From Oceanospirillales bacterium (GTDB lineage Bacteria; Pseudomonadota; Gammaproteobacteria; Xanthomonadales; SZUA-38), in contig QIKT01000183.1 of the NCBI GenBank assembly GCA_003233095.1, positions 8,145-72,144 of the forward strand: a DNA stretch of 64,000 nucleotides, in the 5' to 3' direction. Shown piece by piece: positions 3,322 to 58,380 of the stretch; positions within the stretch are counted from its first letter, which is position 1, and each line of letters starts with the position of its first letter. Under the pieces are notes generated by a model that saw only the letters and a program-made list of their open reading frames with translations, did not search any database and was not told where the DNA came from. Made by a program: the position numbers and the translations under genes.

Positions 3322-3491
3322 CCAGGGAGCCTCTGAACAAGTCTCAAGCGAGTTGGATTGAGAAGGGAAATGCATCCGATCAAGGCGCATGAGCTGAGTC
3401 ATAGTGTTGCTATGGCTCGGTTCATGCAACGCCCAGCGGGCGTAGTTCACGCTCAAGACAGCCGATTACGACTTGTTCAGAGGTTCCCTGG
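3322..3491 (-). repeat. Family B palindromic repeat, copy B1 (intact, inverted relative to B3)
   Basis: Termini CCAGGGAGCCTCTGAACAAGTC ... GACTTGTTCAGAGGTTCCCTGG. About 90% identical by eye to the reverse complement of 36353-36521. Internal arms are self-complementary. Confidence 0.8.
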
Positions 3492-3492
3492 G

Positions 3493-4053
3493 TCATCGCA
3501 CACCAAACCAGAGTGGAAGCCTGAGTCCGAGCATCAACTGAGGCTCGCCTCGATCAATCAGGTCATCGAGCGCATCGTCATACAGGGTATAGCGATAGCG
3601 CAGGTCGGCAATCATCTGCAGGCCAGAATCGCCCAGCCCCCAGGAACCACCGATCGCAACGCTCAGTGCCACGTCAGTTGACGACAGTGCATTCAGGTCG
3701 GTTCGAAGCGCCCCAACGCTCATCAGAAAATAGGGATCCCAGAGGGGTTCGCGATTGATCTGCAGCCAATTGAAGCCTATTCCCAACTGCTTCAGATCTT
3801 GATCCTCTGTCAGACTATGCTCATCGCGCCACAGCTCCACTTCCCAGCTCGAGGTCGCATGACGATTGCGGCCCAGCACCAGGCTGACGACAGTTCCCTC
3901 ATCGGTCTCTGGTTGCGATTCCTGCACGGAGATGCCAGCGTTGACGCCCAGATACCAGGGCGCATTGGGCGTATTGTTCTGAGCCTGGCACGGACTGGTC
4001 GAGATCCCTCCCAGCGATGCGGCGATAATGGCCAGTTGCATTCTTGTCATCAT
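3493..4053 (-). CDS. Small outer-membrane beta-barrel protein (porin-family-like)
   Basis: 186 aa from ATG 4053, which forms an ATGA overlap with the upstream stop. Signal peptide MMTRMQLAIIAASLGGISTSPCQA. Alternating beta-strand pattern with aromatic and Gly-rich segments. Confidence 0.65.
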   Translation of the reverse strand: MMTRMQLAIIAASLGGISTSPCQAQNNTPNAPWYLGVNAGISVQESQPETDEGTVVSLVLGRNRHATSSWEVELWRDEHSLTEDQDLKQLGIGFNWLQINREPLWDPYFLMSVGALRTDLNALSSTDVALSVAIGGSWGLGDSGLQMIADLRYRYTLYDDALDDLIDRGEPQLMLGLRLPLWFGVR

Positions 4054-5294
4054 GGATCCTGCTTGTCCTCGAATTCTCGTCCAGTGCGTTGAGCCACCCA
4101 GGCCCACAGACCTGCGACTGGAATGACCAGCAACAGGATCAGCTTGATCGACAGACCGGCTGATGCGTTGAGCAGATGATACAGATGTCCACTCGCCACA
4201 TCACCACCGCGATAAATGACGGTGTCGATGAAATTCTTGCTCTTGAATTTCTGCTCACGGGTCACCCGCGTGTACAGCAGGTCCCTGGCGGGTTTCATCA
4301 GGCCATATTCCCCACCGCGCCGGATGACCTGGGCAATGCCCATGACCAACAGGCTCGGCGACAGACTGAAGGCGATCAATGCCACGACCGTCAGGATCGG
4401 CATCAGGGCCAGTGCCCAGGACACACCACAACGCCTGATCAGCGCGGCGGTCAACACAAACTGCAGCAGGAAAGCGACCACATTGGCACCCAGATTCACC
4501 AGCGAGAAATATTGCCGGGCCTCTGCCTCGCTCGAAGTCATCAGCTCGACGAAATAGATTTCGGCATAGTAAAACACCGTATTCATGATCGGCAGAAACA
4601 CCAGCAGCAGGCCAATTCGTCCCAGATAAGGGGATTTGATCAATTCGGTGGCACCAGCGAAGATCGTGCCGCCAATAGGATTGCCCGCCTGCAGACGTTG
4701 GCCGGGATCAGCAGCCTGAGTGCCAAGCAGACGCATCAGAAACCAGAGTGCGACTGTCAGCATGATCGCGGCCAGCAGCATGATGCCCTGAACGCTGACC
4801 AGTGCGGCCAGCACGCTGGACAATAGTGACCCGGCAATGGCAGCCAGGCTTCCTCCTGCCGCAATCGGCCCGAACAGACGCTTGGCCTGTTCCGCCTGGA
4901 ACAGGTTGGCCATGAAGCTCCAGAATACCGAGACCACAAACAGGTTGAAGACACTTAACCAGACAAAATAGATGCGCCCAGTCCAGACACTGTCCAAACC
5001 ACCTGTGAGCAGCACAACGAAGATCAACAGATTGCTGATGAAAAACAGATAAATGGAGGGCAAAAAGACGCGCTGCGAGAACCGGGACACCAGAAAACCG
5101 AAGATCGGCACCACCACCAGCGTGGCCACGAAAGTGCCAGTGAACAACCAGGGAACCGATTCATACCCACCGGTCACAACCTGACTTTCACGCAGGGGTC
5201 TGAGCAGACTGTAGGCAAACATCAGACTGCCAAAATGTCCCCATGAAAGCAGTACTCTGGACCACTGGTCGCGCGGAATCAGCCGTTCAAGCAA
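4050..5294 (-). CDS. MFS-type transporter with an ATP/ADP-translocase (Tlc/Npt1)-like N-terminal signature
   Basis: 414-aa polytopic ORF with a TTG start. The N-terminus LLRPLRESQVVTGGYESVPWLFTGTFVATL resembles the Tlc-family motif. Substrate unknown. Confidence 0.65.
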   Translation of the reverse strand: MLERLIPRDQWSRVLLSWGHFGSLMFAYSLLRPLRESQVVTGGYESVPWLFTGTFVATLVVVPIFGFLVSRFSQRVFLPSIYLFFISNLLIFVVLLTGGLDSVWTGRIYFVWLSVFNLFVVSVFWSFMANLFQAEQAKRLFGPIAAGGSLAAIAGSLLSSVLAALVSVQGIMLLAAIMLTVALWFLMRLLGTQAADPGQRLQAGNPIGGTIFAGATELIKSPYLGRIGLLLVFLPIMNTVFYYAEIYFVELMTSSEAEARQYFSLVNLGANVVAFLLQFVLTAALIRRCGVSWALALMPILTVVALIAFSLSPSLLVMGIAQVIRRGGEYGLMKPARDLLYTRVTREQKFKSKNFIDTVIYRGGDVASGHLYHLLNASAGLSIKLILLLVIPVAGLWAWVAQRTGREFEDKQDP

Positions 5295-5339
5295 GGCACA
5301 GTTCGCAGCAAGCTGACGGGTATCCAGAATGCGCGATGA

Positions 5340-6425
5340 TTACGCATCGTCCGACTCTTCAGCGAGGGCTGATGGCGGCCTGGACGCCCCCTGACGCATC
5401 ACGGCCTGACCTGGCCTGAGGCGCTCGGCACCTCGAATGATGACTTCATCGCCGACAGCGAGGTCGCCCTCCACGGCGATCAGACTACCCGCAGCCACAC
5501 CTGTGGTCACCACGACCTGCCTGGCGGTGCCATCCTCATTGATGCTAAATACCGAGACCTGACCAGGGCGTAACACCAGCGCATCGCGTGGCACAACCAG
5601 ATGCGAGGTTGACGGTGCGGTTGGCATGGACAAACGGGCGGTCTGGCCCATTTGAAGCGGCGCATCCAGCGAGGCCCTGACTTCAGTCAGGTGGGTTGCT
5701 TCGTCGCCAACCGGCACCACCGAAGTGACCGTCACCCTGAATATCTGGCTCATGCCATTGCCGGTCGTTCGTGCGTCAAGAATCTGCCCTGGTTGAACAA
5801 AGCGCATTAATGACAAGGGCGCTCGGGCAACCAGCTCCAGCCGATCACGATTGGCCAGTCTCAGCAGGTCCGAACCAGACGACACACTCTCTCCTGCTCG
5901 AGCATAGCGCTCGATAATGACGCCAGCAAAGGGCGCTTCAAGGCGACTGCGGCGAATCTGATCCACGACCCGATCGAGACGGGCTCGGGTAGAGCGTGTC
6001 TGTGCCCGAGTCTGGTCCCGATCGGCTCGGGTCTGCTCAAGCAGATTCCTGGCTGCCGCGTTCTTCTCCGACAGCGACGTCAGACGATCAAACTCTTCGC
6101 TGGCGAATCGAGCCCGTGCCTGCAAGCCTTCCAGTTCGGCGGTCAATTCATCACGTTGAAGTTCCAGGCCGATGGAATCGATTTGGGCCATCGAATCGCC
6201 TGCTTCAAACACGGCGCCTATATCGGCAATGCGCTGTAAGCGCCCACTCACCTCAGCGCTGATCCGCGCGTCATCCAGACTCACGGTGGTTGCCGCCACT
6301 TCGGTGACAGGCGTCAGGGTTTCCATTCGAGCCGTGTCGGTCACCACAGTGGGCGGACCGAACTGCGCCTGAGCGTTTCCGGCCAGCATCATCAACAACA
6401 GTACGTTGCAATCAAACCGCTTCAT
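5340..6425 (-). CDS. Efflux RND periplasmic adaptor (MFP/HlyD family)
   Basis: Signal peptide MKRFDCNVLLLMMLAGNAQA, coiled-coil hairpin, beta-barrel domains. GGAGA lies 8 nt upstream of ATG 6425. Overlaps the RND stop by 14 nt. Confidence 0.85.
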   Translation of the reverse strand: MKRFDCNVLLLMMLAGNAQAQFGPPTVVTDTARMETLTPVTEVAATTVSLDDARISAEVSGRLQRIADIGAVFEAGDSMAQIDSIGLELQRDELTAELEGLQARARFASEEFDRLTSLSEKNAAARNLLEQTRADRDQTRAQTRSTRARLDRVVDQIRRSRLEAPFAGVIIERYARAGESVSSGSDLLRLANRDRLELVARAPLSLMRFVQPGQILDARTTGNGMSQIFRVTVTSVVPVGDEATHLTEVRASLDAPLQMGQTARLSMPTAPSTSHLVVPRDALVLRPGQVSVFSINEDGTARQVVVTTGVAAGSLIAVEGDLAVGDEVIIRGAERLRPGQAVMRQGASRPPSALAEESDDA

Positions 6426-12547: not shown

Positions 12548-12580
12548 CAGGGAGCCTCTGAACAAATCGATCAGGCTACC
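12548..12580 (+). repeat. Solo terminus/fragment of family B repeat
   Basis: TCAGGGAGCCTCTGAACAAATCGATCAGGCT matches the B left terminus and first arm bases. Similarity then decays. Confidence 0.45.
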
Positions 12581-14482: not shown

Positions 14483-14493
14483 GTCAGCCCCGG

Positions 14494-14651
14494 CAGCCTG
14501 TCGGGCTTAACATGATCGACTGCGGAAAATCCGAGTTTGGCCAGATTTCCGGATCTTTTTCGTAACATAGCGGTGCTATTCGCCTCAAAAGATCCAAAAA
14601 TCTGACTCAAATCGGCTTTCCCTCGTGACGACCCGTTAAGTCCGACAGGCT
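14494..14651 (-). repeat. Family A palindromic repeat, copy A1 (inverted relative to A2)
   Basis: 158 bp, about 90% identical by eye to the reverse complement of 17027-17184. Termini CAGCCTGTCGGGCTTAAC ... GTTAAGTCCGACAGGCT. Fills the gap between the convergent GMC and TlpA-like stops. Confidence 0.85.
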
Positions 14652-14652
14652 C

Positions 14653-15939
14653 CTAGTTGCCAGACTGAGAGCTGACAATCAGCTCAACTTGTTCGCGTAA
14701 CTCGCTCACCAACTGATCGAAGTAGACGCCGGTACCGGGCCCGGCAAAGCCTGAATGAATACTGACCACGTCATGATTGGCATCGAGAAAAATCGAGGTC
14801 GGATAGGCGACTACCTTGTCCAGGAAACCCAGCGCTGCTGCAGCATCAGACTTGTCGGTAGTGCCAGCCAGCAGCAGTGGGTAATCAATTCCGTGACGAT
14901 CTCTGAATTCAGCAATCTGCCGACGATCACGCTCGACATCCCCGGTGTATTCAAACGCCAATCCAATGATTTCAAGCCCCTGGGGGTGATAACGACGGTA
15001 CATGTCCGCCAGAACCGGGGCCTCGTCGTTGCAGTTCGGACACCAGCTTCCAAACAGGTTGACCAGCACAGGCTTTCCTGCAAACCGTTCATCGCCCAGG
15101 CTCACCAGCTTGCCTTCCAGGTCGTCAAAACTGAAATCAATGCGCTGATCTTCTGTGGTGATTTTGACCATGGACCAGGCATCTGGAAGAATATCGCTGA
15201 CATCCCGGGTTGATTCTCCCACCCAGGTGGCGTGATACGTATCGCGAGACCAGAAATCGCCATTCAATCGACCGGCATCATCCACAGACGCCTGAAACAG
15301 GAACGCATGAGCGCCATCGAAGGTCGACAGTCTCAGAGTTCTGCCGGTCACATCGCCAGACAGAAATCGATAGTCTCCGGTCGGGGTCATGAACGTCCCT
15401 CGCAGACTCTGTCCGTCCTGTTCAAACAGCCCAACCGCAGGCTCCGTGCCATCCTCATCGGTAAAGCTAACTTCCCAATTCCCGTCAACCCTGACCGGTT
15501 CCTGGCCCGCACTGGCTCCAGCCAGCGGCAAGAAACGTACCGGTGTTCCGCGGGTAGCATTAAAGGCCATGAGCGTGTCTTCATCGGCTGCGGTCTTGCG
15601 CCACTGACCTCGCATGACCGAACGATCTTCGGACAGCTCGGCCGTGATCTCCGAATCGAACCAGCTGAATGCCAGTACAATCCGATCCGCATCAAGCTGT
15701 ACATCACTGAACGGCGTCAGTTCATCACCGTTCACGATCACGCCACGATAGCCGTCTTCTGTTTCATGCAGTTCGAATACGAATGGCAATTCGCCACCGT
15801 CGGACGTCAGCACACCTCGCCATTGCCCGGTGATGGTTGTGCTGGCGGCATCGGGAGCTGGCTCGGCATCCTGATCCGACTGGCAGCCGACGAGCAGAAG
15901 GCTTGCAATGAGACAGAGCTTCCATCTTTTAGTGATCAC
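14653..15939 (-). CDS. TlpA/redoxin-family thiol:disulfide oxidoreductase lipoprotein with a duplicated N-terminal domain
   Basis: GTG start with GGGAG 9 nt upstream. Lipobox LLLVGC. C-terminal thioredoxin fold with a WCPNC active site. Two N-terminal modules of about 95 aa are similar to each other. Confidence 0.8.
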   Translation of the reverse strand: MITKRWKLCLIASLLLVGCQSDQDAEPAPDAASTTITGQWRGVLTSDGGELPFVFELHETEDGYRGVIVNGDELTPFSDVQLDADRIVLAFSWFDSEITAELSEDRSVMRGQWRKTAADEDTLMAFNATRGTPVRFLPLAGASAGQEPVRVDGNWEVSFTDEDGTEPAVGLFEQDGQSLRGTFMTPTGDYRFLSGDVTGRTLRLSTFDGAHAFLFQASVDDAGRLNGDFWSRDTYHATWVGESTRDVSDILPDAWSMVKITTEDQRIDFSFDDLEGKLVSLGDERFAGKPVLVNLFGSWCPNCNDEAPVLADMYRRYHPQGLEIIGLAFEYTGDVERDRRQIAEFRDRHGIDYPLLLAGTTDKSDAAAALGFLDKVVAYPTSIFLDANHDVVSIHSGFAGPGTGVYFDQLVSELREQVELIVSSQSGN

Positions 15940-16082: not shown

Positions 16083-16865
16083 ATGAAACGATTCGCCCTG
16101 GCAGTCTTTGCGACGACACTGATTCTTGATGCACATGCCGAAACATTCGATGTCTCGGTGACCAGCAACCGCTTTACCCCAAATAATTTGACCATTTCAG
16201 TCGGAGACACGGTCCGCTGGACCAACAATGGCGGTTTTCACGATGTGGTCGAGGACAACGCCGCCTTCTCCTCCGGCTCTCCTGCGGGACCTGGCTGGGT
16301 GTTTGAAAGAACCTTCCAGAGCGAAGCTGAAATTCTCTACCACTGCACGGTTCACAGTGCACCCGGACGCCCCATCAATACATCCATGAATGGCCGCATC
16401 AACGTGGTCGCATCCAATGGTTTTGTCATCAACCAGGGCATTTCTGGCGCCTGGTTGAATGCCGATACAGAGGGTCAGGGTTTTCTGTTCGACGTCGACC
16501 CGGACAGCAATTTTCTGTTCGCAGCGTGGTTTACCTATCAGAGTGACGCAACCGCAGTACGAGTCGGCAGTGACGGTCAGCGCTGGCTGACTATTCAGGG
16601 CACCTATGATGGCCCCGGAGGCAGCTTGCCTATCTCCTCGACCAGCGGCGGCAGCTTCAATGCTGCAACTACCACCAACACGGTCCAGGTCGGCACGGCC
16701 ACGATCGAATTCACCGACTGCAGCAATGGCACGATCAGCTACGACCTGACTGACGAAGCCTTGACTGGCAGCATTGCCATCACCCGTCTGCTGCCGACCA
16801 CCAGCGCACTGTGTGAACAACTGAGTTCAGCCTCGGCGTCGTCGTCAGTGGTGGTTCAGAATTAG
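16083..16865 (+). CDS. Cupredoxin (plastocyanin-like) domain protein with an extra C-terminal domain
   Basis: Signal peptide present. Candidate type-1 copper ligands are FHDV ... YHCTVH ... SMNGRINV. The C-terminal domain of about 150 aa (GISGAWLNADTEGQGFLFDV...) has unknown function. Confidence 0.75.
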   Translation: MKRFALAVFATTLILDAHAETFDVSVTSNRFTPNNLTISVGDTVRWTNNGGFHDVVEDNAAFSSGSPAGPGWVFERTFQSEAEILYHCTVHSAPGRPINTSMNGRINVVASNGFVINQGISGAWLNADTEGQGFLFDVDPDSNFLFAAWFTYQSDATAVRVGSDGQRWLTIQGTYDGPGGSLPISSTSGGSFNAATTTNTVQVGTATIEFTDCSNGTISYDLTDEALTGSIAITRLLPTTSALCEQLSSASASSSVVVQN

Positions 16866-17026
16866 ACGCCTCTGAACCAGTACGGGCGCCGGTCGACTGA
16901 GGTGGCAAATACGCCCAATCAGTGCGCAGGAACTGGCGCATAGCTGAGCTATGACTCAGCTCTTGCTACACACAGAGGGCATGTTCGACACTCAAAACAA
17001 CCACTCATGGTTCAGAGCTTCCCCAG
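16866..17026 (+). repeat. Family B repeat, degenerate copy B2
   Basis: Starts directly after the cupredoxin stop. GCCTCTGAACCAGT ... AATACGCCC ... GCGCATAGCTGAGCTATGACTCAGCTC ... GGTTCAGAGCTTCCCCAG is colinear with B3 but more diverged. Confidence 0.55.
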
Positions 17027-17184
17027 CAGCCTGTCGGACTTGACGGGTGGTCACGAGGAAAAGTCGATTTGAGTCAGATGTTTCGATCTTTTGAGGCGAA
17101 TAGCACTGCCAGGCAACGAAAAAGATCCGGAAATCTGGCCAAACTCGGATTTTCCGCAGTCGATCATGTTAAGTCCGACAGGCT
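17027..17184 (+). repeat. Family A palindromic repeat, copy A2
   Basis: Termini CAGCCTGTCGGACTTGAC ... GTTAAGTCCGACAGGCT. Flanked on both sides by CCCCAG (17021-17026 and 17185-17190). Abuts B2. Confidence 0.85.
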
Positions 17185-17393
17185 CCCCAGAAAAACTTCG
17201 CCGTCACGGTCACATGACCCGATAGCTGGACTCTGCTTGTATCTTCAGGATCATCACAGGCCAATCCAATTGCCAGTGGTCCATAGTGATCGCGAAGGCC
17301 CTGGGAAATCTGCCGCTGCATCCACACCGGTCGCGTTCTGGACGAATCACATCAACGAGCTAACCTGCTGCTTGAGGCGGGCCACCAGCTCCA

Positions 17394-36276: not shown

Positions 36277-36297
36277 CCCCTGTTCTGATCGTCCTGG

Positions 36298-36621: not shown

Positions 36622-36632
36622 CTCGACCGAGA

Positions 36633-39786: not shown

Positions 39787-40747
39787 TTTTGATAGATTCC
39801 TGTTGACTCAAGTAATGGCGCTGACTGAACCGGCCAGCCAGCGCATCGGGTGTGCCTATGAAGGAGGTTTCCTTCTGTGCGTGAACCCCGTCGACCATGG
39901 AGCTGACAACACAGCTGGAGGACTCCTGTATCCATATCTCGCCCCCCTTATCAGCCACCTGTTGGGCTGCCGCCACACCATCGGTGGACATTCCGCTGAA
40001 GATCATCATGTTCAGTTGTCCGGAAAACGACTGGCCCAAGGCATCCACCGTGTCATCAATGCACGGTGTAAAGCGGGACACCTGATCGCACTTGCTAAAG
40101 GAACATTGCCCCATGCGATCTGCTTCGAACCGCTGTGATCCGGGAATCACGTGAACGACCCCAGGACGTATCAGGTCACCTTGCTGCACCAGACGGACCG
40201 GCAGTGCGCACACTTGATCCAACTGCCTGACAAGCTGCCTGACAAATTCCACGCCAATATGTTGCACTAGGACCAGTGCTTCATTGACCGGACCAGACAA
40301 GCCAGATAGAAACTGTCGCAATGCTTCTGGGCCACCGATGGATGCTGCCAATACCCATATTGACAGTCCGGGTCGGCTCAGTGCCTGTGTGCCCATAATG
40401 ACTGGTGTATCTCGGTAGCACATGATCTGATCGACCAGGCCATCGGTCTGCCGCCAGAACGCTTGTCGTTCGGCGGTCAGATCTAATGCTTCGATCATCA
40501 TGACCGGCAGGCTTGTGGACCACTCTGTCAGCTGCTGGCGAAGCTCAGGATCGAATTCTTTCTCATCCTGACAGACCAGCAAGAAATCGTGATCGGCAAC
40601 CTCAACTTCCCTCAACTGATCAGGCCGAATCGCAACGGTAGCAAGACCCCGCTCAGACAATGCTTCTGCCAGCCTTGCAAGGTCGCCCGACGCTCGCCCG
40701 ACCAGCAGCGTTGTGCGCATCAAAGCTGTATCAGGATTGCTCTGCAA
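39767..40747 (-). CDS. chpB: CheB-like protein-glutamate methylesterase with a degenerate receiver domain
   Basis: C-terminal CheB catalytic domain (AASIGGPEAL, VQHI, GMSTDG). The N-terminal ~120 aa is receiver-like but lacks the acidic pocket. TTG start at 40747; ATG 40720 is an alternative. Confidence 0.8.
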   Translation of the reverse strand: MQSNPDTALMRTTLLVGRASGDLARLAEALSERGLATVAIRPDQLREVEVADHDFLLVCQDEKEFDPELRQQLTEWSTSLPVMMIEALDLTAERQAFWRQTDGLVDQIMCYRDTPVIMGTQALSRPGLSIWVLAASIGGPEALRQFLSGLSGPVNEALVLVQHIGVEFVRQLVRQLDQVCALPVRLVQQGDLIRPGVVHVIPGSQRFEADRMGQCSFSKCDQVSRFTPCIDDTVDALGQSFSGQLNMMIFSGMSTDGVAAAQQVADKGGEIWIQESSSCVVSSMVDGVHAQKETSFIGTPDALAGRFSQRHYLSQQESIKNGTLSS

Positions 40748-43700
40748 CGTTCTGCTTCAGGAGTTCCTGGACATTGGCCAACAACTCTGGCTCCTGATAG
40801 GGTTTGCCCAGATACCGTTCCACACCGATTTCCATGGCTCGATCACGGTGCTTGGCACCGGTTCGCGAGGTAATCATGATGATCGGAATATTGCGCAATC
40901 TTGGATCATTTTTCATGTGCGTGGCCAACTCATACCCATCCATGCGTGGCATTTCGATATCCAGCAGCATCAGATCGGGAATAGTGTCCTGCAATTGCTC
41001 CAGTGCATCGACTCCGTCTTTCGCTGTGATTACATCCATGTCATACCGCTGCAGGACTCGCGTGGTAACCCGTCGCATGGTGATCGAGTCATCCACCACC
41101 ATGATGTTTGGCTGCACATCATCTGGAACATCGACCATTGCCAGCTCTTCAATGGAATCGTTTTCGAAGCGGTGAGCCGCTGCATTTCTGATCAACGGGC
41201 TCAGGTCAAGAATCATGACCACGCTGCCGTCACCCAGAATAGTGGCGCCGAAGATCCCCGGAATACTGCTCACCTGCGGACCGACGGACTTGACCACGAT
41301 TTCACGGTTGCCCAGCACCTCGTCAATCCGGATGGCCGCTCGCTGGTCTCCAGCTCTTGCCATCAGCAATGGCCACATGTCCACGTCGGTGGGCAATTTG
41401 GATTCCAGACCCAACAGTCCGGATAACTCGGTCATCTGGTACTCTTCGCCGGTGTATTCGTAGATCATGTCACCGGTTTCGTTGCGCAGTTCGATGTCCT
41501 TGCGTCGGATCCGGGACACACCCAGGATACTGGTCAGAGGGATGGCAAACTGGTTTTCGCCGATTTTCACCATGATCGCCTGAGCCACCGCCAGAGTGAA
41601 TGGCAACCGCACTTCGAACTCCGAACCCAATCCCTTCTCTGAGGTAATCTCGAGAGATCCGCCCAACTGCTTGATTTCGTTGTTGACCACGTCCAGACCC
41701 ACTCCACGTCCAGCAATTTTCGAGACGCTCTCGGCAGTACTGAACCCGGACTCGATAATGAATCCATATAGGTCACGCTTGCCCAGCTGAGCATCTTCGG
41801 TCAGCAATCCGGCTTCAATGGCTTTAGTGCGAATGGCCTCATGGTCAATACCCGCACCATCATCGGAAATTCGAATCAGGACTTCGGTCGCTTCCCTGCT
41901 GACTTCGATCAGCACGATGCCTTCTTCGTTCTTGTCCCTGGCCAGCCGTTCCTCGGGGGTTTCAAGACCGTGCGCGATGGCATTGCGAACCATGTGCTCC
42001 AGAGGCGCTGTGATGCGCTCCAGAACGGTTCGGTCCATCTCACCGTGAGCTCCCACGACCTGCAGTCGGGCCTTCTTGCCCAATTCCTGACAGGTTTGCC
42101 TGAGAATTCGCCTGAGACGAGGGACCAGTGAATCAAATGGAACCATGCGGGTCCGCATGAGACCTTCCTGAAGATCGGAGTTGACTCGTGACTGTTGCAA
42201 CAACAGTGTTTCTGACTGTCGAGTCAGGTCATCCATCATGCCCTGCAGACTCACCAAGTCAGAGACTGACTCGGCCAATGCTCGTGAGAGCTGCTGCAGC
42301 GTTGAAAAGCGGTCCATTTCCAGTGGGTCAAAATCTGCCGAAGACTCATCTGTCTCTCGCTGGAAGCGCGACAGAATCTGGGCTTCGGTTTCCATTTCCA
42401 GCTTTCTGAGCTGATCACGGAGACGATTGACCGTCACATCAAATTCCACCAGGTTGAACCGGAACGTTCCAATCTGCTGCTCCAGGCGCGTTCGGTAAAT
42501 ACTGACCTCACCGGCATAGTTGACCAGATTGTCCAGCAGGTCCGAACGGACCCGGATCAGTTCGCGTGCTGACTGAACCGCCGGTTGGGGTGCCGCTTTG
42601 TCCTGTTCGTCGAGCTGTGTCGACTTCTCACTGATAGGAATAAATTTGGGTGAATCAGCCGGTTTGATTTGCTTGAGCTTAGGCTTGGACTTGGACTTGG
42701 ACTTGGACTTGTCCTTTTGACTGACTTGCTGTGCTACCGCTTCGCTGGCATCCGCTTCTATCGTCTCACCCCGAATCAGTCGTTCGATATACGAGGCAAC
42801 TTCTCGGCCAGTCGGAATCGGTGCACGTTCCTGGATACTGCTGAGCATCTGATGAAGCCGATCAAAGGCATGCTCAAGCACATCGATGACCTCACCTGTC
42901 GGCGTCGCCTGCTCGTTTGTGATCTTCTCAAACAGAGATTCAACAGCATGGCTCAAATCGCCAACCGGCGAGAAGCCAGCCATTCGTGCGCCACCCTTGA
43001 GTGTATGAAGATCACGCTGAAGGGCCTTGACGGGCTCCTGATCTTCCAGGTCTTCACGCCAAGTGGCCATCAAATGGTCAGAGCTGTCCAGAATTTCGGT
43101 GCCTTCCTGAAGGAAGATATCGAGGAGTTCGTCATCAATATCGTTCAGATCTGTGAAGGCGATCGTGGATTCATCGGTCAGCGCACTGGCGACTGCCGAG
43201 GAACGGCCTACAACTGTCGCAGCTTCGGTTTCGGTTTCGGTTTCGGTTTCGGTTTCATCGAGAAACTCATCGAATTCCGAGAAACCTTCATCGTCCAGAG
43301 CAAATATTTCGACGTTTTCTGCTTCTGCTTCTGCTTCTGCTTCTGCTTCTGCTTCTGCTTCTGCTTCTGCTTCTGCTTCTACTTCTACTTCTACTTCTAC
43401 TTCTACTTCTACTTCTACTTCTACTTCTACTTCTACTTCTACTTCTACTTCTACTTCTACTTCTACTGCTTTTGTATCGTCTTCCTCGACTGCATCAACG
43501 AAATCTGCAAATTCCGAGAACTCTTCATCATCGAGCGCAAAGGCATCGGCATCATCAGCATCAGACCCTGCCGACAACTCGACGCCTGACATTGGCTCCG
43601 CTAGATCGGTCTCAGCAGCAACGCTGTCCAGGCTGTCTGTTGAGGTGTCATCATCAAACTCCAGGATGAAATCCTGATCGTCCAACTCGTCGAACACCAG

Positions 43701-46700
43701 GGCGATCTTGTCGCTTTCACCCGTTGCGACCTCATCAAAGCTCGACGCATCGGCCTGCTCGGTAACGATTTCGCCCGTTTCCTCATGCTTCCTTTCATCA
43801 AACAGCTGATGCAAGTTGGTGGTCTCGGGCAGTTCATCCCTAAGACTGCACAACGATCCGCTGATTTCAGAAGTATTCGGATACACGGGCTCAGCTTCTG
43901 AAAGCTGATCGACAAAGAGCTTGACGGTTCGCGCACTCTCTCGAATGGCTGCCAGGCCAGTTTCATCCGGAGAATGATGGCCCAGGCGCAAGCGCTTCAC
44001 ATAGCCCTCAAGTGGGCCAGTCACCGCTGAAAGACTGGGCAAGTCGACCATCGCAATCGCACCATTAAGCGTATGAACTGCCCTTAGCAGGGATTCTGAC
44101 GCTTCCGGAATCGGGTGTGACTGATCGGCATCATCCAGATAGGCATTCACGACCGATAGGTGGTTACTGACCTCACCTCTGAGGATATCCAGGAGTACCT
44201 GGTCAATCACAGTCGTTTGCTGATCTCTGGGTGGCTCAGGTTGTGCCGTTTCAACAGCGTCATCCTGGTCATCTGTCTTCAGTGAAACGGGTTCTTCGGT
44301 GATGTCTTCTGTGGCCTCGTCCTGCTGATTTTCGAGCTCATTAACAGGGCCGTCACCTTCCATCATCTCCTCAGTAACATCATCCGACTCGAGACCCAGG
44401 TCGTCCAGCGAGAGCTCATTCAGATCAAAGACATCCGACTCTTCGACAGCCTCATCAGTGGTCTCCAGATCAGGCTCGTCGATTGATGCCTCAAGGCCCA
44501 GTTCAAATTCGTCAACGGCCTCTGTGGACAGAAGATCAGACTCCATGTCAATCTCGAGTTCAGGCAGTTCGTTTTCGAGGGTCAACTCGGACGATTCTTC
44601 CGTGGCATCCGTCTCATCCTCCAGCAGATTGTCAGTATCGACAAATGCGGTCAGATCAAAGTCAGCCAATTCATCAGACCTGTCGCTCTCGGCATCGTCC
44701 TCAAGAGGCTCGAGGCTCAGGTTAATCTCATCATCGTCCGGCTCGGTAACATTGGAGACATCGGATTCCGGCACTTCGGCCTCCATCTCGAGATCGATCT
44801 CCAGTTCATTGCTGTCATCAAGCAGCTCCAGCGTCAGTTCACCCTCCGCGCCTTGTAGCGGTTCGAGTGTCAATTCACTGGCTGAATCATCAACCGTTTT
44901 ATCGACCTTGGTGGAGTCGCTGTGAGCAGTTTCCTGCGACGCATCGTCCAGAGACAGCTCCAGATCAATCGAGCCCTCGCGATCCTCGGATGTGATCGTC
45001 GAGTCACCTTCGGTAACAGATGACTGTGCATCGTCCACTGTTGCTTCGGTCAGATCTTCGAAACTGAGCAGCTCATCGGCTTCTTCATCCTCATCGACAA
45101 GGCTCAACTCCCATTCAGGCTCAACCGAATCCTCAGTTGTGGTCTCGACGCTTGAAACATCCGCGGATGTTTCACTGGTCTCATCCATGCTAAAGTCATC
45201 GTTGTCAAAGGTGATGGCACCTTCAGCCAGGGAAATCTCGTCTTCGCTGCCTGTTGTGTCTCTATCATCCAGGGCCGCTTCAAGCTCTTCCAGGTCCAGC
45301 CCCATCAGATTATCGATTGATGTGTCACCAGCATCGGCATCTGGAGCAAGCTCTTCGGAGACCGTCTCTTCGATAATCGCTTCTGCTTCGGGCTCCATTT
45401 CAGAGGCGGTATCAGCAGGCTTCAGCCAGGCTTCGGTTCCAGAAGCCACGCTTTCTGCAACCAGCTTGATCCCTTCAATATCCGCATCAGGGAGCCCTTC
45501 ACCTTTCACATTGGCGAGCAATTGAGGCAAGACGGAGACCGAATCCTTGAGTACCGACACCAGCGCATCACTGGCGTTAATCGATTTGTCCAGCACTCGG
45601 TTCAACATGTTTTCCAGCTGCCAGCTGAAGTTTCCGAGCGTCTGAGCACCGACCAGCCGTCCACTGCCCTTGAGCGTATGGAAAGACCGCCGAATGGTTG
45701 TCAGGGTTTCGAGATCGCTGGGGTCCTGATGCCACTGGGGAACCAGTTGGCGCAAATTGTCGAGCTCTTCTTCTACTTCCTCGATGAATATTTCTCTGAT
45801 TTCATCATCAACATCGCCACCGATATCTGCCGCAGATTCCTGCTTGACCGGATCACCACTGAGATAATTGCGTCCGTCAACCAGACCTGCAGACATCGCT
45901 TCATGATCAGCTGCGGACTGTCGTTCCATCTGCGCTGAGGATGTATCTGGCAAAATGGCCGGTTGATCACCCGCTGCAGGCAGCTCCTGGGTATCTGCTT
46001 GGGAGCTTGTCGCTTGAGCTGAATCGAGGTCCTGGGTAGTCGCAGCCTCCTCGACTGGTTCGTCCTGGAAATCGTCGTTCTGCTCCAGAGTATCGAGATG
46101 ACTTTGACGACTCAATGGATCCAGATAGCCCAGTTTGTCCAGGCTGGATCTGGCCACCTCAAGAATACGAGTTCGTCCAGGGCGGCGTTCGCGAACCGCT
46201 TCAAGATAGTATTCCAGGCTGGCGACTGCGTCGGCCAGCGTATCGAGTTGCACTGCATCCGGAAGAGAATCCTGAGCCAGCAACTCAACTTGTGTATAGG
46301 CAGACACCCCTTCAAGCAGATCAACTGCTTCGTCCAGATCAAGCATTTTCAGAGCGCCAGAAATTTCATCAAGCAGATGAGGTGTTTGGCGAATGAGTGC
46401 CTTGTTGGCTGGCGCATCGATGAAGTCAACGACACATTGTTTCATTTTCTGAAGGTTGGTAGAGGCTTCCTTCATCAGGGCATTGAGAATCTTTTGCACT
46501 TCGCTTGCAGGCAGATCAATGCCATGGCCTTCGCCTTCAGCGTCGTTGCTTTCGATACCAATCTGTGACAAATCATCATCAATCGATGATTCGACGAAAA
46601 TCAGTGACCCGGCGATATCAAGTAGCGCCGACTCCGTAACTGGACGTTCCCCGCGCCCCAACTCGGCCAGCAGTTCACGCTGTTCCTGAATCGACTTGGA

Positions 46701-47822
46701 AGATGATTCCAGTCCCAACATCTTGAAGGTATCGGCAACGCTGTCGAGCGCCTGGATCTGGTCATCGAATGATTCATCACGAATCTCGACTTTTCTGACT
46801 CGGAGATCAAGGTTGTCCTTGACTCGCAACAGGTCGTCCCTGATTGCTTCGGAGACGGTCTCAAGCAGCTCCCTGTTGCGACCCTTCATTGCACCTTGGG
46901 CGTGCTCAAGCTCGGTGATATCCGGCAACAGTTCGCGCAGCTGATACCATTCCCTCAGCTGATCCACACTTGAAGTACCCAGATCGGCATGCGCAGCATA
47001 ATACAGCAGGCTACGAACCAACTGATGAGGCGGATCTTCTGCGATTTGAACTTCACCGATCAGTGCCAGCCGCTTGATCGAGCCATCGACTCGCCCATAG
47101 AGCTTTTTCAGCGAGTTATCGACCACGACGTTGTCATCGATGACGCCCTGAAGAATCGCTTCGGATACCCACCATAATCGACGCATTTCTACTTCTGATG
47201 ACAGCTCGCACAATTTGTCGCAGATCAGTCGAAGCGTGTTGATTTCCTTTCGACTCTCTGCTGACCCGCTGAACCAATTGAGCAGACAGGCCTCAAAACG
47301 CTTGCGCAGCTTGGCCGCCGCGGCTCTGAGAGTTCGATCGTCGAGCGGTTTCGACAGCCCCTTGACCGAATCGGGCAATGGGATTGAAATATCGGGGGTG
47401 AACAACGCTGCCTCGGTCAACAACTTGGCCTGTCTGGACGACCTCAGATCATTGAGAAGTGGCAGCAGAACCACCGGAATATCCCGGAAACCGCCTTGCA
47501 GTCGTTCCAGATAATCAGGCAACTGTACAATACCGCGCATCAGGGCATTGTAGGCTGAATCTCGATCGCCTATGTCCTCGTCAGCGAGGGCACTGGCCAC
47601 TTTCTCCATCTCCTCGACCACCATCGCAGCGCCATACAGTTCGACCATGCGCAGCGTGCCCTGAACCTGATGCAGGTAGGTGACACAGAACTGCATCTGG
47701 CTGGTGTCGGAGGTATCTTCGACGTACATCTCCAGAGCCTGTCGGGCCTGTTTTAGAATGTCGTCGAGCTCCTGCTTGACCCAGTTGAGAGTCGTGAAGT
47801 CGATGTCGTTATGTAGTCTCAT
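40731..47822 (-). CDS. chpA: Hybrid histidine kinase ChpA (multi-Hpt CheA homologue with C-terminal receiver)
   Basis: 2363 aa. Several Hpt-type modules, three with HTLKG/HTLNG. Also a CheA dimerisation and HATPase core, a CheW-like domain and a C-terminal REC domain (IMVVDDS...DIEMPRMDG). ATGA overlap with pilK. Confidence 0.9.
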   Translation of the reverse strand: MRLHNDIDFTTLNWVKQELDDILKQARQALEMYVEDTSDTSQMQFCVTYLHQVQGTLRMVELYGAAMVVEEMEKVASALADEDIGDRDSAYNALMRGIVQLPDYLERLQGGFRDIPVVLLPLLNDLRSSRQAKLLTEAALFTPDISIPLPDSVKGLSKPLDDRTLRAAAAKLRKRFEACLLNWFSGSAESRKEINTLRLICDKLCELSSEVEMRRLWWVSEAILQGVIDDNVVVDNSLKKLYGRVDGSIKRLALIGEVQIAEDPPHQLVRSLLYYAAHADLGTSSVDQLREWYQLRELLPDITELEHAQGAMKGRNRELLETVSEAIRDDLLRVKDNLDLRVRKVEIRDESFDDQIQALDSVADTFKMLGLESSSKSIQEQRELLAELGRGERPVTESALLDIAGSLIFVESSIDDDLSQIGIESNDAEGEGHGIDLPASEVQKILNALMKEASTNLQKMKQCVVDFIDAPANKALIRQTPHLLDEISGALKMLDLDEAVDLLEGVSAYTQVELLAQDSLPDAVQLDTLADAVASLEYYLEAVRERRPGRTRILEVARSSLDKLGYLDPLSRQSHLDTLEQNDDFQDEPVEEAATTQDLDSAQATSSQADTQELPAAGDQPAILPDTSSAQMERQSAADHEAMSAGLVDGRNYLSGDPVKQESAADIGGDVDDEIREIFIEEVEEELDNLRQLVPQWHQDPSDLETLTTIRRSFHTLKGSGRLVGAQTLGNFSWQLENMLNRVLDKSINASDALVSVLKDSVSVLPQLLANVKGEGLPDADIEGIKLVAESVASGTEAWLKPADTASEMEPEAEAIIEETVSEELAPDADAGDTSIDNLMGLDLEELEAALDDRDTTGSEDEISLAEGAITFDNDDFSMDETSETSADVSSVETTTEDSVEPEWELSLVDEDEEADELLSFEDLTEATVDDAQSSVTEGDSTITSEDREGSIDLELSLDDASQETAHSDSTKVDKTVDDSASELTLEPLQGAEGELTLELLDDSNELEIDLEMEAEVPESDVSNVTEPDDDEINLSLEPLEDDAESDRSDELADFDLTAFVDTDNLLEDETDATEESSELTLENELPELEIDMESDLLSTEAVDEFELGLEASIDEPDLETTDEAVEESDVFDLNELSLDDLGLESDDVTEEMMEGDGPVNELENQQDEATEDITEEPVSLKTDDQDDAVETAQPEPPRDQQTTVIDQVLLDILRGEVSNHLSVVNAYLDDADQSHPIPEASESLLRAVHTLNGAIAMVDLPSLSAVTGPLEGYVKRLRLGHHSPDETGLAAIRESARTVKLFVDQLSEAEPVYPNTSEISGSLCSLRDELPETTNLHQLFDERKHEETGEIVTEQADASSFDEVATGESDKIALVFDELDDQDFILEFDDDTSTDSLDSVAAETDLAEPMSGVELSAGSDADDADAFALDDEEFSEFADFVDAVEEDDTKAVEVEVEVEVEVEVEVEVEVEVEVEVEVEVEAEAEAEAEAEAEAEAEAEAENVEIFALDDEGFSEFDEFLDETETETETETEAATVVGRSSAVASALTDESTIAFTDLNDIDDELLDIFLQEGTEILDSSDHLMATWREDLEDQEPVKALQRDLHTLKGGARMAGFSPVGDLSHAVESLFEKITNEQATPTGEVIDVLEHAFDRLHQMLSSIQERAPIPTGREVASYIERLIRGETIEADASEAVAQQVSQKDKSKSKSKSKPKLKQIKPADSPKFIPISEKSTQLDEQDKAAPQPAVQSARELIRVRSDLLDNLVNYAGEVSIYRTRLEQQIGTFRFNLVEFDVTVNRLRDQLRKLEMETEAQILSRFQRETDESSADFDPLEMDRFSTLQQLSRALAESVSDLVSLQGMMDDLTRQSETLLLQQSRVNSDLQEGLMRTRMVPFDSLVPRLRRILRQTCQELGKKARLQVVGAHGEMDRTVLERITAPLEHMVRNAIAHGLETPEERLARDKNEEGIVLIEVSREATEVLIRISDDGAGIDHEAIRTKAIEAGLLTEDAQLGKRDLYGFIIESGFSTAESVSKIAGRGVGLDVVNNEIKQLGGSLEITSEKGLGSEFEVRLPFTLAVAQAIMVKIGENQFAIPLTSILGVSRIRRKDIELRNETGDMIYEYTGEEYQMTELSGLLGLESKLPTDVDMWPLLMARAGDQRAAIRIDEVLGNREIVVKSVGPQVSSIPGIFGATILGDGSVVMILDLSPLIRNAAAHRFENDSIEELAMVDVPDDVQPNIMVVDDSITMRRVTTRVLQRYDMDVITAKDGVDALEQLQDTIPDLMLLDIEMPRMDGYELATHMKNDPRLRNIPIIMITSRTGAKHRDRAMEIGVERYLGKPYQEPELLANVQELLKQNVAEQS
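42684..42707 (-). repeat. In-frame hexanucleotide repeat (CTTGGA)4 in chpA
   Basis: Perfect tandem array. Encodes KSKSKSKS on the coding strand. Confidence 0.9.
43226..43255 (-). repeat. In-frame hexanucleotide repeat (CGGTTT)5 in chpA
   Basis: Perfect tandem array. Encodes (ET)5. Confidence 0.9.
43321..43464 (-). repeat. In-frame hexanucleotide arrays (GCTTCT)10 and (ACTTCT)14 in chpA
   Basis: 144 bp of uninterrupted 6-bp units. The two arrays differ at one unit position. Together they encode (EV)14(EA)10. Confidence 0.95.
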
Positions 47823-50787: not shown

Positions 50788-50805
50788 AACTGACTACCCT
50801 ATGTT

Positions 50806-51778: not shown

Positions 51779-51810
51779 GTCGATTGAACCGAGCGGACCG
51801 CAAGCGGTCG

Positions 51811-54395: not shown

Positions 54396-54450
54396 GCGGT
54401 CCTCATCAGCTAATGGTTACAGTCTGTGGCAGTTGTTGTAAACTGGCAGC

Positions 54451-55970: not shown

Positions 55971-56910
55971 ACAGAGCCCTTCCGATACAGGTCGACTCGC
56001 ACACTTCATCACCATTGATGGACTCAAGCGCGACACGCTGGTTCGCATCCTGGACACCGCCGACACCTTCCAGACTGCGTCTGACCGACAAGTCCGCAAG
56101 TTTCCGACTCTGCGTGGCAAGACCATCGTCAACCTTTTCTTCGAGAACAGTACCCGTACGCTGACCACCTTCGAGCTGGCTGCCACCCGATTATCTGCGG
56201 ACGTGGTCAACCTGAAACTGGACCATTCCAGCACCCAAAAAGGTGAGACGCTGCTGGACACCCTGCGGACCCTTGAGGCAATGCACTGCGATCTGTTCAT
56301 TGTTCGCCACAGCGATAGCGGCGCGGCGCATTTTATTGCCAGTCATGTCGGTGACGAAGTCTCGGTACTCAATGCCGGAGACGGACAGCATGCCCACCCC
56401 ACTCAGGCAATGCTGGACTGCTATACGATTCGCCGCCATCGACCTGACCTGGAAAACCTCAGAGTTCTGATCGTCGGAGATATCCTGCACTCGCGCGTCG
56501 CGCGATCCCAGATCATGGCTCTGAACACACTGGGCGTGCGCAGCCTCAGCGTGCTGGCGCCGCCCACCCTGCTGCCCAGTGCGATTCATGCTCTGGGCGT
56601 TGATGTGGCTGACAATCTGGACGAGGCCGTAGTCGACAAGGATGTGATTATCATGCTTCGGGTCCAATATGAACGCATGCGAGAGGTTCATGTCCCTGGA
56701 CCTGAAGAGTATCGCCGGCAATATGGTCTGACCGAAGAGCGACTGGCTCGCGCCAACCCGGGCTGTCTGGTCATGCATCCTGGCCCGATCAATCGCCAGG
56801 TGGAGATCGATTCAAGTGTGGCTGATGGCCCGCAGTCGGTCATTCTGGAACAAGTCGGCAATGGGGTCGCCATTCGCATGGCGATCCTGTCCATGATGCT
56901 GAGCTCATGA
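55960..56910 (+). CDS. pyrB: Aspartate carbamoyltransferase catalytic subunit
   Basis: 316 aa. [12 protein letters not shown] and HPGP motifs. Confidence 0.9.
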
Positions 56911-58160
56911 TGAACAACACTCACCTGATCAATATCCAGATGCCCTGGTCAACGTCGACGCAAGAGGTCCTGGCACTTGACTCAAAAGGGACGGTCATCG
57001 ACCAGCCGCGCGCCGACTCAGACACTATTGACGGCAAGGGGCTGACGCTATTGCCTGGCATGATCGACCTTTCTGAATGGCTTGGTCACAGCGATTACCG
57101 CCCGCAAGGCTATCCAGACGAGGAATTGGCCGCTGCAGTACGATGTGGGTTCAGCCGAGTATGCGTCGCACCAGATTCAGCGCACCTCAGCATGCAGACC
57201 CAAGATCGCGATCATTCAGAACAGGCCATGCCCCATCTGATTCAGGTCGGCGAAATGACGGCGGACCTTGCCTCGCAGACGCTGGCCGACTACAACCTGA
57301 TGGCCCAGAACGGGCTGTCTCACCTGGGCAACGGCGCCTGCAATCCTGACGATCAGCGTCTGATGCTGTCGGCATTCAAGGTCGCCCAGGCAAACGGCAT
57401 GACCATGCACTGCATGGCACAGGACAATGACCTGTCCGCCGACGGCTGCGCCCATGATGGCCGGCTGGCAGCTCGCCTCGGACTCAGGCCCATCCCGGTG
57501 GTAGCCGAGACGCTGGAGTTGGCGCGAATCATTGCCCTGGTCGAACAAACAGGCTGTTCGGTGCACCTTCGTGAACTGACCTCCGCAGCAGGCCTCAGGC
57601 TGGTAGAGCAGGCGAAACGCTCAGGGCTGCCGATCACTGCCGATACCACCATGGTGCATCTGTTTCTGTCTGAACAGAATTTGTCCGGATTCAACGCCAG
57701 CTGCCACGTGCTGCCGCCCTTGCGATCGACCGAAGATCGTGATGCTCTGATCGATGGGCTCAAAAGCGGTCTGATTGATGCCATCAGCAGCGGCCATCAA
57801 CCACTCAATCGGGACGCCAAGCTGGCCCCATTCCCGTCCACCGAACCGGGCATGTCAACCATCGATGTCTTTCTGGCACTCGGGTTGCGCCTGGTTCACG
57901 ACGAACACATCGAGCTCGCGCGTCTGGTCGAGCTAACGGTCACCCAACCGGCACATATCCTCAAACTGGATCAGGTCGGACTCAGTGACGGATGTCAGGG
58001 CGATTTCATGCTGATCGACCCGTACCAGGAATGGCAATACAGCGGCGAGGCAGGCCACAGCGGATCACCACACAGTGGTTTTGAGGGCTGGCGCTTCACA
58101 GGGCGAATCAAGGCAACATGGATCAACGGTCAACCGGTATATCAGGCCGATTCAGACTAA
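56907..58160 (+). CDS. pyrC': Dihydroorotase-like, probably non-catalytic ATCase partner
   Basis: 417-aa amidohydrolase fold. The N-terminal HxH metal motif is replaced ([10 protein letters not shown]) and the SDHAP-type motif reads SSGHQP. ATGA overlap with pyrB. Confidence 0.75.
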
Positions 58161-58202
58161 CAACGATCCTTCCGTAGCGCCATGACTCGTAGTCACGCTG
58201 TT

Positions 58203-58380
58203 CCAGGGAGCCTCTGAACAAGTCGTGATCGACTGTCTTGAGCATGAAATACGCCCGCTCGGCGTTGCATGAGCTGAGCCATAGCACCGCTATTTAACGA
58301 ACAAGATCGGGGCATTTGGCCACACTCGGGTTTTGTGCAGTAGATCACCTCAAGTCCGACAGGCTGTTAGAGGTCCCTGG
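58203..58380 (+). repeat. Hybrid repeat: B left arm, shared core, A right arm, B right terminus
   Basis: 58203-58288 matches the B3 left arm through GAGCCATAGCACC. 58289-58366 matches the A3 right arm, ending AAGTCCGACAGGCTG. 58367-58380 (TTAGAGGTCCCTGG) resembles the B right end. Confidence 0.8.

Follow-up and report, generated by a model that had tools for sequence, protein, structure and literature searches.

The transposases of the IS1182 and IS5 families of insertion sequences (ISs) are known to be related and share a DUF772-type N-terminal domain, and short mobile derivatives called miniature transposable elements with inverted repeats (MITEs) have been described for both. In the IS1182 family, ISPse1 is 1653 bp long, with terminal inverted repeats of 16/16 and a direct repeat of 4 bp (PMC3281130), and Methanosarcina acetivorans has IS1182-derived MITEs that are 160-169 nt long and show 4-bp repeats (PMC3852290). 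IS5 is flanked by CTAA or CTAG (PMC11677980), and the IS5-derived MITEPsy1, which was trapped experimentally, makes a 4-nt duplication of CTAG or YTAA (PMC3189936). Elements of the ERIC/IRU, YPAL and Correia families are often co-transcribed with their neighbours as long RNA hairpins that are processed by RNases, while clustering and nesting of different MITE families is known in Streptococcus pneumoniae (PMC10969869). Two families of palindromic intergenic repeats, A and B, are analysed here in a stretch of 64,000 nt (the window) of contig QIKT01000183.1, positions 8,145 to 72,144 of the forward strand, from GenBank assembly GCA_003233095.1; best protein matches place the source among Lysobacterales/Xanthomonadales-like metagenome-assembled genomes (MAGs). 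The two families are very probably non-coding hairpin MITEs of ~157-162 bp with the ends of IS1182 (A) and IS5 (B) elements, moved in trans, targeted to YTAR tetranucleotides (Y for pyrimidine and R for purine) and creating a 4-bp duplication.

The nature of the termini emerges from a genome scan with the A terminus AGCCTGTCGGACTTRACRNG as query and a metagenome scan with the B terminus AGRGAGCCTCTGAACAAGTC. The A terminus is found at no fewer than 102 loci (at least that number being counted in the genome scan) in Alpha-, Beta- and Gammaproteobacteria, Acidobacteriota, Balneolaceae and Bacillota. Lineages among the matches listed are Defluviicoccus, Acetobacterales, Rhodopila, Pseudolabrys, Sulfuricella, Vogesella, Lysobacterales, Wenzhouxiangellaceae, Marinobacterium, Parendozoicomonas, Balneolaceae and a Bacillota MAG. 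Among the A-terminus matches listed, CTAG stands before nearly every one, and for many the distance to a contig end is ~100-140 nt, which is the signature of an insertion-sequence end. A second, inverted A terminus (two mismatches at most) lies 1.48-1.66 kb away in 14 of the 32 ends that, among the matches listed, adjoin an open reading frame (ORF) of more than 250 aa. The ORFs printed from four such A-ended loci are 435-470 aa long and start with MS(N/H)FR. The protein of one locus (L083) scores 348.8 bits on the NCBIfam model NF033551 of IS1182 family transposases (cutoff 270) and contains the Pfam domains DUF772 and DDE_Tnp_1. Over 20 nt the A terminus is identical to the ends of the complete 1.5-1.66-kb IS1182 elements recovered. 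Family A carries an IS1182-family terminal inverted repeat (C/G-AGCCTGTCGGACTTRAC), and its membership as an IS1182-family derivative follows from this repeat, shared with elements encoding NF033551 proteins, and from a 4-bp duplication.

The B terminus was met at 120 loci or more in the metagenome scan (at least 120), where the matches listed are mostly short inverted-repeat elements of 39-359 nt with a mode at 157 nt. One locus (L118) contains at 230-1419 a complete 1.19-kb element, TTAG-GGAGCCTCTGAACAAGTC...TTGTTCAGAGCTTCC-TTAG, and its 316-aa ORF scores 348 bits on the NF033581 model of IS5 family transposases (cutoff 140) and also 120 bits on the IS1182 model. Family B carries the terminal repeat of IS5-family, IS5-group elements (GGAGCCTCTGAACAAGTC), and its assignment to them as a derivative relies on this repeat, which is identical to the end of the L118 element with its IS5 transposase, and on a 4-bp YTAR duplication. 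Autonomous ISs with matching terminal repeats, the search for which had been proposed in the first-pass annotation, thus exist for both families. The relatedness of A and B asserted there is borne out for the termini, which belong to sister transposase families; the resemblance of the two terminal repeats fits the relatedness of the IS1182 and IS5 transposases.

Some loci among the matches deserve separate mention. An IS-sized pair of B-type ends (L167, 976 nt) was rejected as an IS, since no transposase-like ORF lies inside and the pair probably represents two separate ends; another candidate for the end of a parent IS (L075) is just a 31-nt remnant beside a large gene. The interior of family A shows no relation to the recovered ISs beyond a weak likeness to the left end of an IS1182-type element from an Acidiferrales MAG (L059, 269-1855, flanks TTAA/TTAA). 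The left ~60 nt of this element are similar to the right arm of family A (AACATGA..CGGAAAA..CCGGATC; 57 of 92 alignment columns match), and judging by this resemblance it is possibly a relative of the parent IS of family A. In a Beijerinckiaceae MAG (L011, 961-1062), two identical IS1182-type ends in direct orientation are separated by 82 nt, and CCTAGC stands before both; an IS end seems to have been partially duplicated in tandem here.

In line with the earlier view of the elements as non-autonomous and MITE-like, they are non-coding and tblastn with IS1182 transposase found no such gene in the window. As to IS5, no ORF resembling a transposase of this family was seen in the window, for which no separate IS5 tblastn was made. 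The movement of A and B would depend on matching DDE transposases acting in trans, whose genes lie in another part of the genome or were once present in it. Neither tRNA nor tmRNA is present in the window.

Both types of element duplicate a 4-bp YTAR target, mostly CTAG. Among the matches listed, CTAG directly precedes 86 of 105 A-type ends, and IS-sized A-type pairs are bracketed by CTAG/CTAG (15 of 18) or, once, by TTAA/TTAA. The B-type pairs listed show CTAG/CTAG (13), TTAG/TTAG (5), CTAA/CTAA (1) and TTAA/TTAA (1). As some of these direct repeats at B-type pairs are non-palindromic, the 4-mer is a duplication and not a piece of the inverted repeat. Direct proof is provided in the window by a composite in which one family is inserted into the other. 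Here the family-A MITE A3 (36298-36621, plus strand; flanks CTGG and CTCG) is split into 36298-36356 and 36518/36522-36621 by the family-B MITE B3 (36357-36517, plus strand), which is nested between CTAG 36353-36356 and CTAG 36518-36521. The uninterrupted A copies read CAGATTT-NNNN-ATCTTTT, where NNNN is TTGG, TTCG or CCCG, while A3 reads CAGATTT-CTAG-B3-CTAG-ATCTTTT. Intact A copies thus have exactly 4 nt where B3 sits, and CTAG is a 4-bp target-site duplication. This bracket and the pairs in other genomes establish target-site duplication as a property of the elements; most other flanks in the window are decayed.

The copies reported in the first-pass annotation were all found where it had placed them, by sequence reading, repeat detection, MAFFT alignment and nhmmer. 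The repeats themselves stand; their limits had to be redrawn, as the elements proper measure 157-162 nt, within the size range of MITEs, and the outermost CCAG, CTGG or CTAG that had been counted as B termini are target-site duplications. The recurrence of both termini and of the shared central tip is far above chance expectation in the window: the A terminus (two mismatches at most) has 8 matches versus 0.39 expected from dinucleotide-preserving shuffles, the B terminus (three at most) 7 versus 0.13 and the tip (two at most) 7 versus 0.95, no shuffle reaching the observed count.

Besides A3 and B3, there are two further elements of family A and two of family B. B1 (3326-3487, minus strand) is a complete family-B MITE with the IS5-type termini GGAGCCTCTGAACAAGTC / GACTTGTTCAGAGGTTCC, flanked by a decayed target duplication (CCAG 3322-3325 and CTGG 3488-3491). 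A1 (14494-14652, minus strand) is a complete family-A MITE with IS1182-type termini, between CCGG 14490-14493 and CTAG 14653-14656. B2 (16866-17022, plus strand), an old and diverged B-type MITE, follows TTAG 16862-16865 and ends at CCAG 17023-17026, which it has in common with A2. A2 (17027-17185, plus strand), again a complete family-A MITE, has CCAG as its left flank and (C)CCAG as its right flank. A solo B-type left end (GGAGCCTCTGAACAAATCG..., 12551-12580, plus strand), directly preceded by TCAG, lies in a divergent promoter region. The last piece is a chimera, the hybrid (58203-58380, plus strand), consisting of a CCAG flank, a B left arm (58207-58293) with the tip ATAGCACCGCTAT at 58281-58293, an A right arm to 58366, TTAG 58367-58370, a 6-nt remnant of a B right end (AGGTCC, 58371-58376) and a CTGG flank (58377-58380). 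A1 and A2 are 91% identical and A3 is 82-83% identical to both of them; B1 and B3 are 89% identical, and the B-left part of the chimera matches B3 at 94% over 93 nt. B2 is merely 54-56% identical to B1 and B3, yet it is recognized by nhmmer with E = 3e-40. The ORFs that cross A and B elements are spurious.

Mobility was assessed by comparison with a sister species, represented by Logan assemblies that are syntenic with the window at ~80% nucleotide identity. In this species the element is missing wherever the sites can be compared (B1, A1, B2 and the hybrid), and nhmmer found no A or B copies in the relatives' loci scanned (L223-L232). The empty site of B1 is precise: locus L233 reads ...CAA-CCGG-GTCATCGCAC, with a single CCGG, where the window reads ...CGA-CCAG-B1-CTGG-GTCATCGCAC. 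At the B2 site, CTAG 6031-6034 of locus L228 holds both stop codons of the convergent SpoIIE-type and cupredoxin-type genes; in the window the orthologous tetranucleotide is TTAG and B2 comes directly after it. The spacer between the GMC and TlpA genes, occupied by A1, is 14 nt long in L228 versus 170 nt in the window, and that between pilU and pyrC', occupied by the hybrid, is 63 nt long in L223, with no element, versus 227 nt in the window. The check for presence and absence among relatives that had been called for has thus returned empty sites.

Copies of family A that are 88-90% identical to A1 occur in other Lysobacterales, in Wenzhouxiangellaceae and in gammaproteobacterial MAGs. A more distant, unannotated A-like copy (75.7% over 144 nt) lies on a conjugative plasmid of Pseudomonas sp. 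MPC6 (NZ_CP034782.1, 140983-141125); it is the only match of family A in the PLSDB plasmids, where family B has none. The plasmid copy points to a possible route for horizontal spread of family A. The presence of nine pieces in one 64-kb window, three of them within 5 kb, could have suggested local duplications or gene-conversion products confined to the region. This idea, which the first-pass annotation had already set against that of a dispersed family, retains practically no probability in view of the family-A copies of several other MAGs and of a Pseudomonas plasmid (76%), of the occurrence of the termini at least 102 (A) and at least 120 (B) times on unrelated contigs, and of the target-site duplications and orthologous empty sites. 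The nine pieces, the copies in other MAGs and the empty sites together describe dispersed elements with presence/absence polymorphism, as is typical of MITEs.

At the B2-A2 locus, the insertions are accompanied by the loss of host sequence. A SpoIIE/PP2C phosphatase gene is intact (430 aa) in L228 (4742-6034) and L232 (7758-9050), and only a remnant of its first ~60 (N-terminal) codons is left in the window (17195-17393, minus strand). By tblastn the remnant is 77.6% identical over 49 aa at 17363-17217, and the blastn block ends at 17195. The B2 and A2 pair stands in place of the missing 1.1 kb, and the outer end of A2 marks the breakpoint, at a CTGG that corresponds to CTGC in the relative. 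The deletion itself is plain from this comparison; it would be due either to the element deleting sequence next to itself or to two A copies having recombined.

The location of the elements with respect to genes can be understood from their target. Five of the six loci lie near a stop codon, as noticed in the first-pass annotation, at distances of 0-11 nt. The stop codon of the TlpA-like gene (minus strand) is the TAG within the CTAG that flanks A1, and that of the cupredoxin-like gene lies within the TTAG that flanks B2. Outside the MITEs, the window contains 83 YTAR sites, of which 64 are coding, 12 intergenic and 7 on stop codons. Because YTAR contains TAG or TAA and insertions in coding sequence are purged, copies are found beside stop codons, and this adjacency is explained by target choice combined with purifying selection. 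The target is also rare: CTAG occurs 18 times in the window, where base composition predicts 244 occurrences and a Markov model 41, and 3 of the 18 flank MITEs. According to the scheme proposed, elements would insert at YTAR tetranucleotides, mostly CTAG, with duplication of 4 bp; insertions within genes would be purged, and the survivors would be those in short spacers and on or beside stop codons, YTAR being rare in a CTAG-depleted genome.

The same target accounts for the mosaics. The first-pass annotation had seen A ends repeatedly abutting B-terminus-like sequence, and had proposed that A inserts into B ends or that the two form a BIME/ERIC-like mosaic. The abutment is real in the hybrid, where A sits in a B terminal repeat at T(C/T)AG; in the other two of the three cases the B-like sequence is the shared, CTAG-derived 4-bp duplication (CCAG or CTGG). 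A specific affinity of A for B ends is not needed and a REP/BIME-like system is not at hand, since a common YTAR target suffices. Three juxtapositions remain, namely B3 nested in A3 at CTAG, the B2-A2 tandem sharing one CCAG and the hybrid. Each insertion doubles the target, so that new insertions land beside or inside old ones; this would have produced the nested A3/B3 composite, the tandem with its single common 4-mer and the A element within a B terminal repeat. The hybrid shows TTAG after the A right end and next to it the last 6 nt of the B repeat, which implies that A entered a B end at the T(C/T)AG within GTTCAGAGG. A subsequent deletion between the directly repeated tips (ATAGCACCRCTAT) would then yield the present order of B left arm, tip, A right arm, TTAG and B end.

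The flanks found today, CCAG, CTGG and CCGG, as well as the CCGG of the relative's empty B1 site, all lie on the path of T-to-C changes from CTAG on either strand, and the flanking CTAGs would for the most part have decayed to these forms in this lineage. CCAG (588) and CTGG (503) are over-represented in the window. Bias of the very-short-patch-repair type is a plausible cause of such an excess, and it may underlie both the decay of the flanks and the CTAG deficit.

Folded with RNA parameters, A1, A2, B1 and B3 form strong and long imperfect hairpins, with minimum free energies of -57 to -97 kcal/mol and z-scores of -5.6 to -9.7 (B1, -90.7 kcal/mol, z -9.7; A1, -84.5 kcal/mol, z -9.7; A2, -73.9 kcal/mol, z -7.9; B3, -96.9 kcal/mol, z -9.6). 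The hairpin of B2 is weak (z -3.3 and -3.9), and for the chimera no hairpin is obtained (z -0.8 and -1.9). The earlier description of whole units as imperfect hairpins therefore applies to the first four, weakly to B2 and not to the hybrid. Very stable RNA folds (z -6 to -10), the position of 5 of the 6 loci within 11 nt of a stop codon and of 4 between convergent genes, and a stem that covaries across families (see below) are what would be expected of host-selected regulatory RNA hairpins of REP/BIME or ERIC type, kept at gene ends as terminators, 3' stabilizers or processing sites. Correia and ERIC elements do affect transcripts via RNase III and RNase E (PMC10969869).

The A3/B3 composite is of particular relevance here. 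It is 324 nt long and takes up the entire spacer that separates gspG (T2SSG) from the following pseudopilin gene (window 36276-36633; N-terminus of the latter, MTLIEVLLVVVI) in a minus-strand operon for type II secretion (T2SS). It is therefore not at a convergent junction but inside the T2SS pseudopilin operon, a correction to the first-pass annotation, and the long minus-strand ORF 35803-36603 is an artefact running into the MITE. Differential expression of gspG and the minor pseudopilin gene would be sensible at such a place. The composite would be transcribed as a large hairpin, with a conceivable effect on relative expression in the operon.

A regulatory origin of the hairpins is nevertheless improbable. 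No T-run follows any element hairpin on either strand, and no terminator-like site coincides with a whole-element hairpin (there is one weak internal site in A3), so that both an intrinsic terminator and the bidirectional terminator suggested earlier were discarded. The fadE gene has its own terminator-like hairpin with a T-run, AAAAGGCCGGCATATTGCAGGCCTTTTT, at 3270-3299 upstream of B1, missed by a simple scan and conserved in L233 and L236. The absence of the elements from the orthologous spacers of the sister species means that the flanking genes do not require them. The copies occur in both orientations, one of them in a promoter region and another as a chimera that does not fold, and the adjacency to stop codons is accounted for by the YTAR target. 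Strand-specific RNA selection was examined by counting G-U pairs against A-C mismatches between the arms; the ratios (6:3, 7:3, 7:3 and 8:1) reveal a modest excess on one strand, mixed in other families, which is not compelling. The search of Rfam suggested earlier (Rfam 15) gave no match in the window at the gathering threshold, and near copies yielded only noise at E up to 10. The elements are far better understood as MITEs, for which 3' mRNA stabilization or RNase targeting is possible as a side effect.

The hairpin has a further property that concerns both families. Among all short elements recovered by terminus alone, a central ATAG-N3-8-CTAT is found in 27 of the 32 distinct elements of 154-160 nt, with either type of terminus, versus 1 of the 40 of other sizes. 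Alignment of 23 such elements gives a consensus hairpin with 39 pairs, among which 31 show compensatory changes; 91% of cells are paired, versus 69% in shuffles (none of 500 as high), and the covariation score is 0.66 versus 0.27 in shuffles and 0.07-0.18 in slid controls. Alone among the helices, the tip helix (ATAGC...GCTAT) has no pair changed on both sides, and the length of its loop varies between 2 and 5 nt. CATG beside the right terminal repeat is also common to the ~157-nt elements. No similarity between the inner arms of A-type and B-type elements is detectable (alignment scores versus shuffles, z about 0), so that the notion of one superfamily rests only on termini, CATG, length, tip and hairpin. 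No published description of a shared covarying ~157-nt hairpin with an invariant tip was found, and the sole literature match of the terminus strings is an unrelated Geobacter primer.

The shared hairpin and tip may reflect one ancient MITE lineage that evolves under constraint on the hairpin and serves two transposase families related to each other, or may be a convergent architecture. Going further, the ~157-nt elements, which come from numerous lineages and habitats, could form an ancient superfamily of hairpin MITEs acting in a folded single-stranded state (hairpin or cruciform), their tip being recognized by the DUF772-type N-terminal domain or by a host factor; the hairpin with its ATAGC...GCTAT tip would then be the functional unit, recognized as folded ssDNA or RNA, and A and B would be one ancient element adapted to two transposase families. 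In favour of this proposal are the near-restriction of the ATAG...CTAT tip to one size class with both types of terminus (27 of 32 versus 1 of 40), the invariance of the tip stem amid covarying helices, the shared CATG and a variation in loop length that would fit recognition of a hairpin better than that of a duplex dimer site. It remains rather unlikely, since common descent is unproven in the face of inner arms without detectable similarity, palindromic MITEs can stay symmetric without selection for folding (through their mode of origin or arm-to-arm conversion), the sampled elements are related by descent and their counts are not independent, and the binding of a protein at the tip is hypothetical. 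B-type MITEs of 258-288 nt with a different conserved GC-rich centre, GCCCCGNAGGGC, were also seen in metagenomes (L106, L121, L128, L144, L156 and L180), and each size class of B-type MITE seems to have its own tip.

Several points weigh against a simple account of A and B as IS1182- and IS5-derived MITEs. Most flanks in the window are imperfect repeats (CCGG/CTAG, CCAG/CTGG, CTGG/CTCG and TTAG/CCAG), and apart from B3 the duplication in the window is deduced through decay. Two of the four empty sites, those of A1 and the hybrid, are short spacers that cannot be aligned and are not base-precise, the sister species being ~20% diverged. The partner transposase is putative for this genome, of which the view is that of a 64-kb window. 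Finally, the covariation of the stem and the invariant tip exceed the needs of a plain cut-and-paste model based on terminal repeats, and hint at an additional constraint that this account leaves open. The derivation from IS1182 and IS5 elements remains very likely all the same. With copies 82-91% identical to each other, the insertions are old and probably no longer active; A and B copies are read as selfish MITEs, by now probably inactive, and effects on transcripts are possible by-products.

The main use of these results is in annotation: the intergenic palindromes of an uncultured Lysobacterales-like genome are explained, with exact boundaries, a YTAR target and its duplication. The elements mark lineage-specific insertions and a 1.1-kb gene deletion, and a simple rule tells why such elements accumulate at stop codons and side by side where the genome is poor in CTAG. 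A wider interest attaches only to the covarying ~157-nt hairpin with its invariant tip, shared by elements with the ends of two transposase families. If the tip or hairpin is a functional requirement, it bears on how very short elements are recognized and moved; and if the tip is indeed read in folded form, this would amount to an unrecognized requirement for the mobilization of MITEs in the IS5 and IS1182 families, or to a role at the RNA level. Unrelated to the MITEs, the window contains at 43281-43511, within a 2363-aa ORF (40731-47822, minus strand), a long perfect tandem array of hexanucleotides that changes from (TTCTGC)n to (TTCTAC)n. In the giant protein it is translated as an acidic repeat of the dipeptide type, and the tract may be prone to slippage.

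How A and B compare with known systems can be stated for each of them. ERIC/IRU, YPAL and Correia (NEMIS) elements of enterobacteria and Neisseria are, like A and B, imperfect palindromic intergenic MITEs of 100-170 bp. These families have a TA duplication and termini unrelated to those of A and B, whereas A and B are set apart from their literature descriptions by a YTAR duplication and IS5 or IS1182 terminal repeats. The REP/BIME palindromes of E. coli and Pseudomonas are likewise clustered, intergenic, mosaic and located at gene 3' ends; however, REPs are units of 20-40 nt linked to RAYT (Y1) transposases, with no architecture of terminal repeats and duplication, while here complete DDE-type MITEs are nested or adjacent through a shared target. 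Membership in REP/BIME was rejected given a unit of ~160 nt with IS-type terminal repeats and duplications, no search being made for a RAYT gene. In BOX, RUP and SPRITE of S. pneumoniae, different MITE families also bunch and insert into one another (PMC10969869), but their sequences, hosts and transposase families are unrelated to those of A and B.

Closer relatives are found among derivatives of the same IS families. ISPse1-type IS1182 elements have a 4-bp duplication in common with family A, which lacks coding capacity. The IS1182-derived MITEs of M. acetivorans share with A a size of ~160 nt and a 4-bp direct repeat, the archaeal partner IS being different and the comparison being one of published descriptions (PMC3852290). 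For family B, the counterpart is MITEPsy1 of P. syringae, derived from ISPsy2, which is also non-coding, has IS5-type terminal repeats of 18 nt (GGAAGGTCTGAAAAAGCC / GTATCCTCTGAAAAAGCC, versus GGAGCCTCTGAACAAGTC in B), duplicates 4 nt at CTAG or YTAA, is mobilized in trans and has relatives reported to be widespread (PMC3189936). MITEPsy1 is 100 nt long and was trapped experimentally, whereas B is ~160 nt long, has another interior, folds into a long imperfect hairpin tipped by ATAGC...GCTAT and owes the evidence for its mobility to comparative data only. A and B are thus ordinary IS1182- and IS5-derived MITEs, of kinds already known but with new members.

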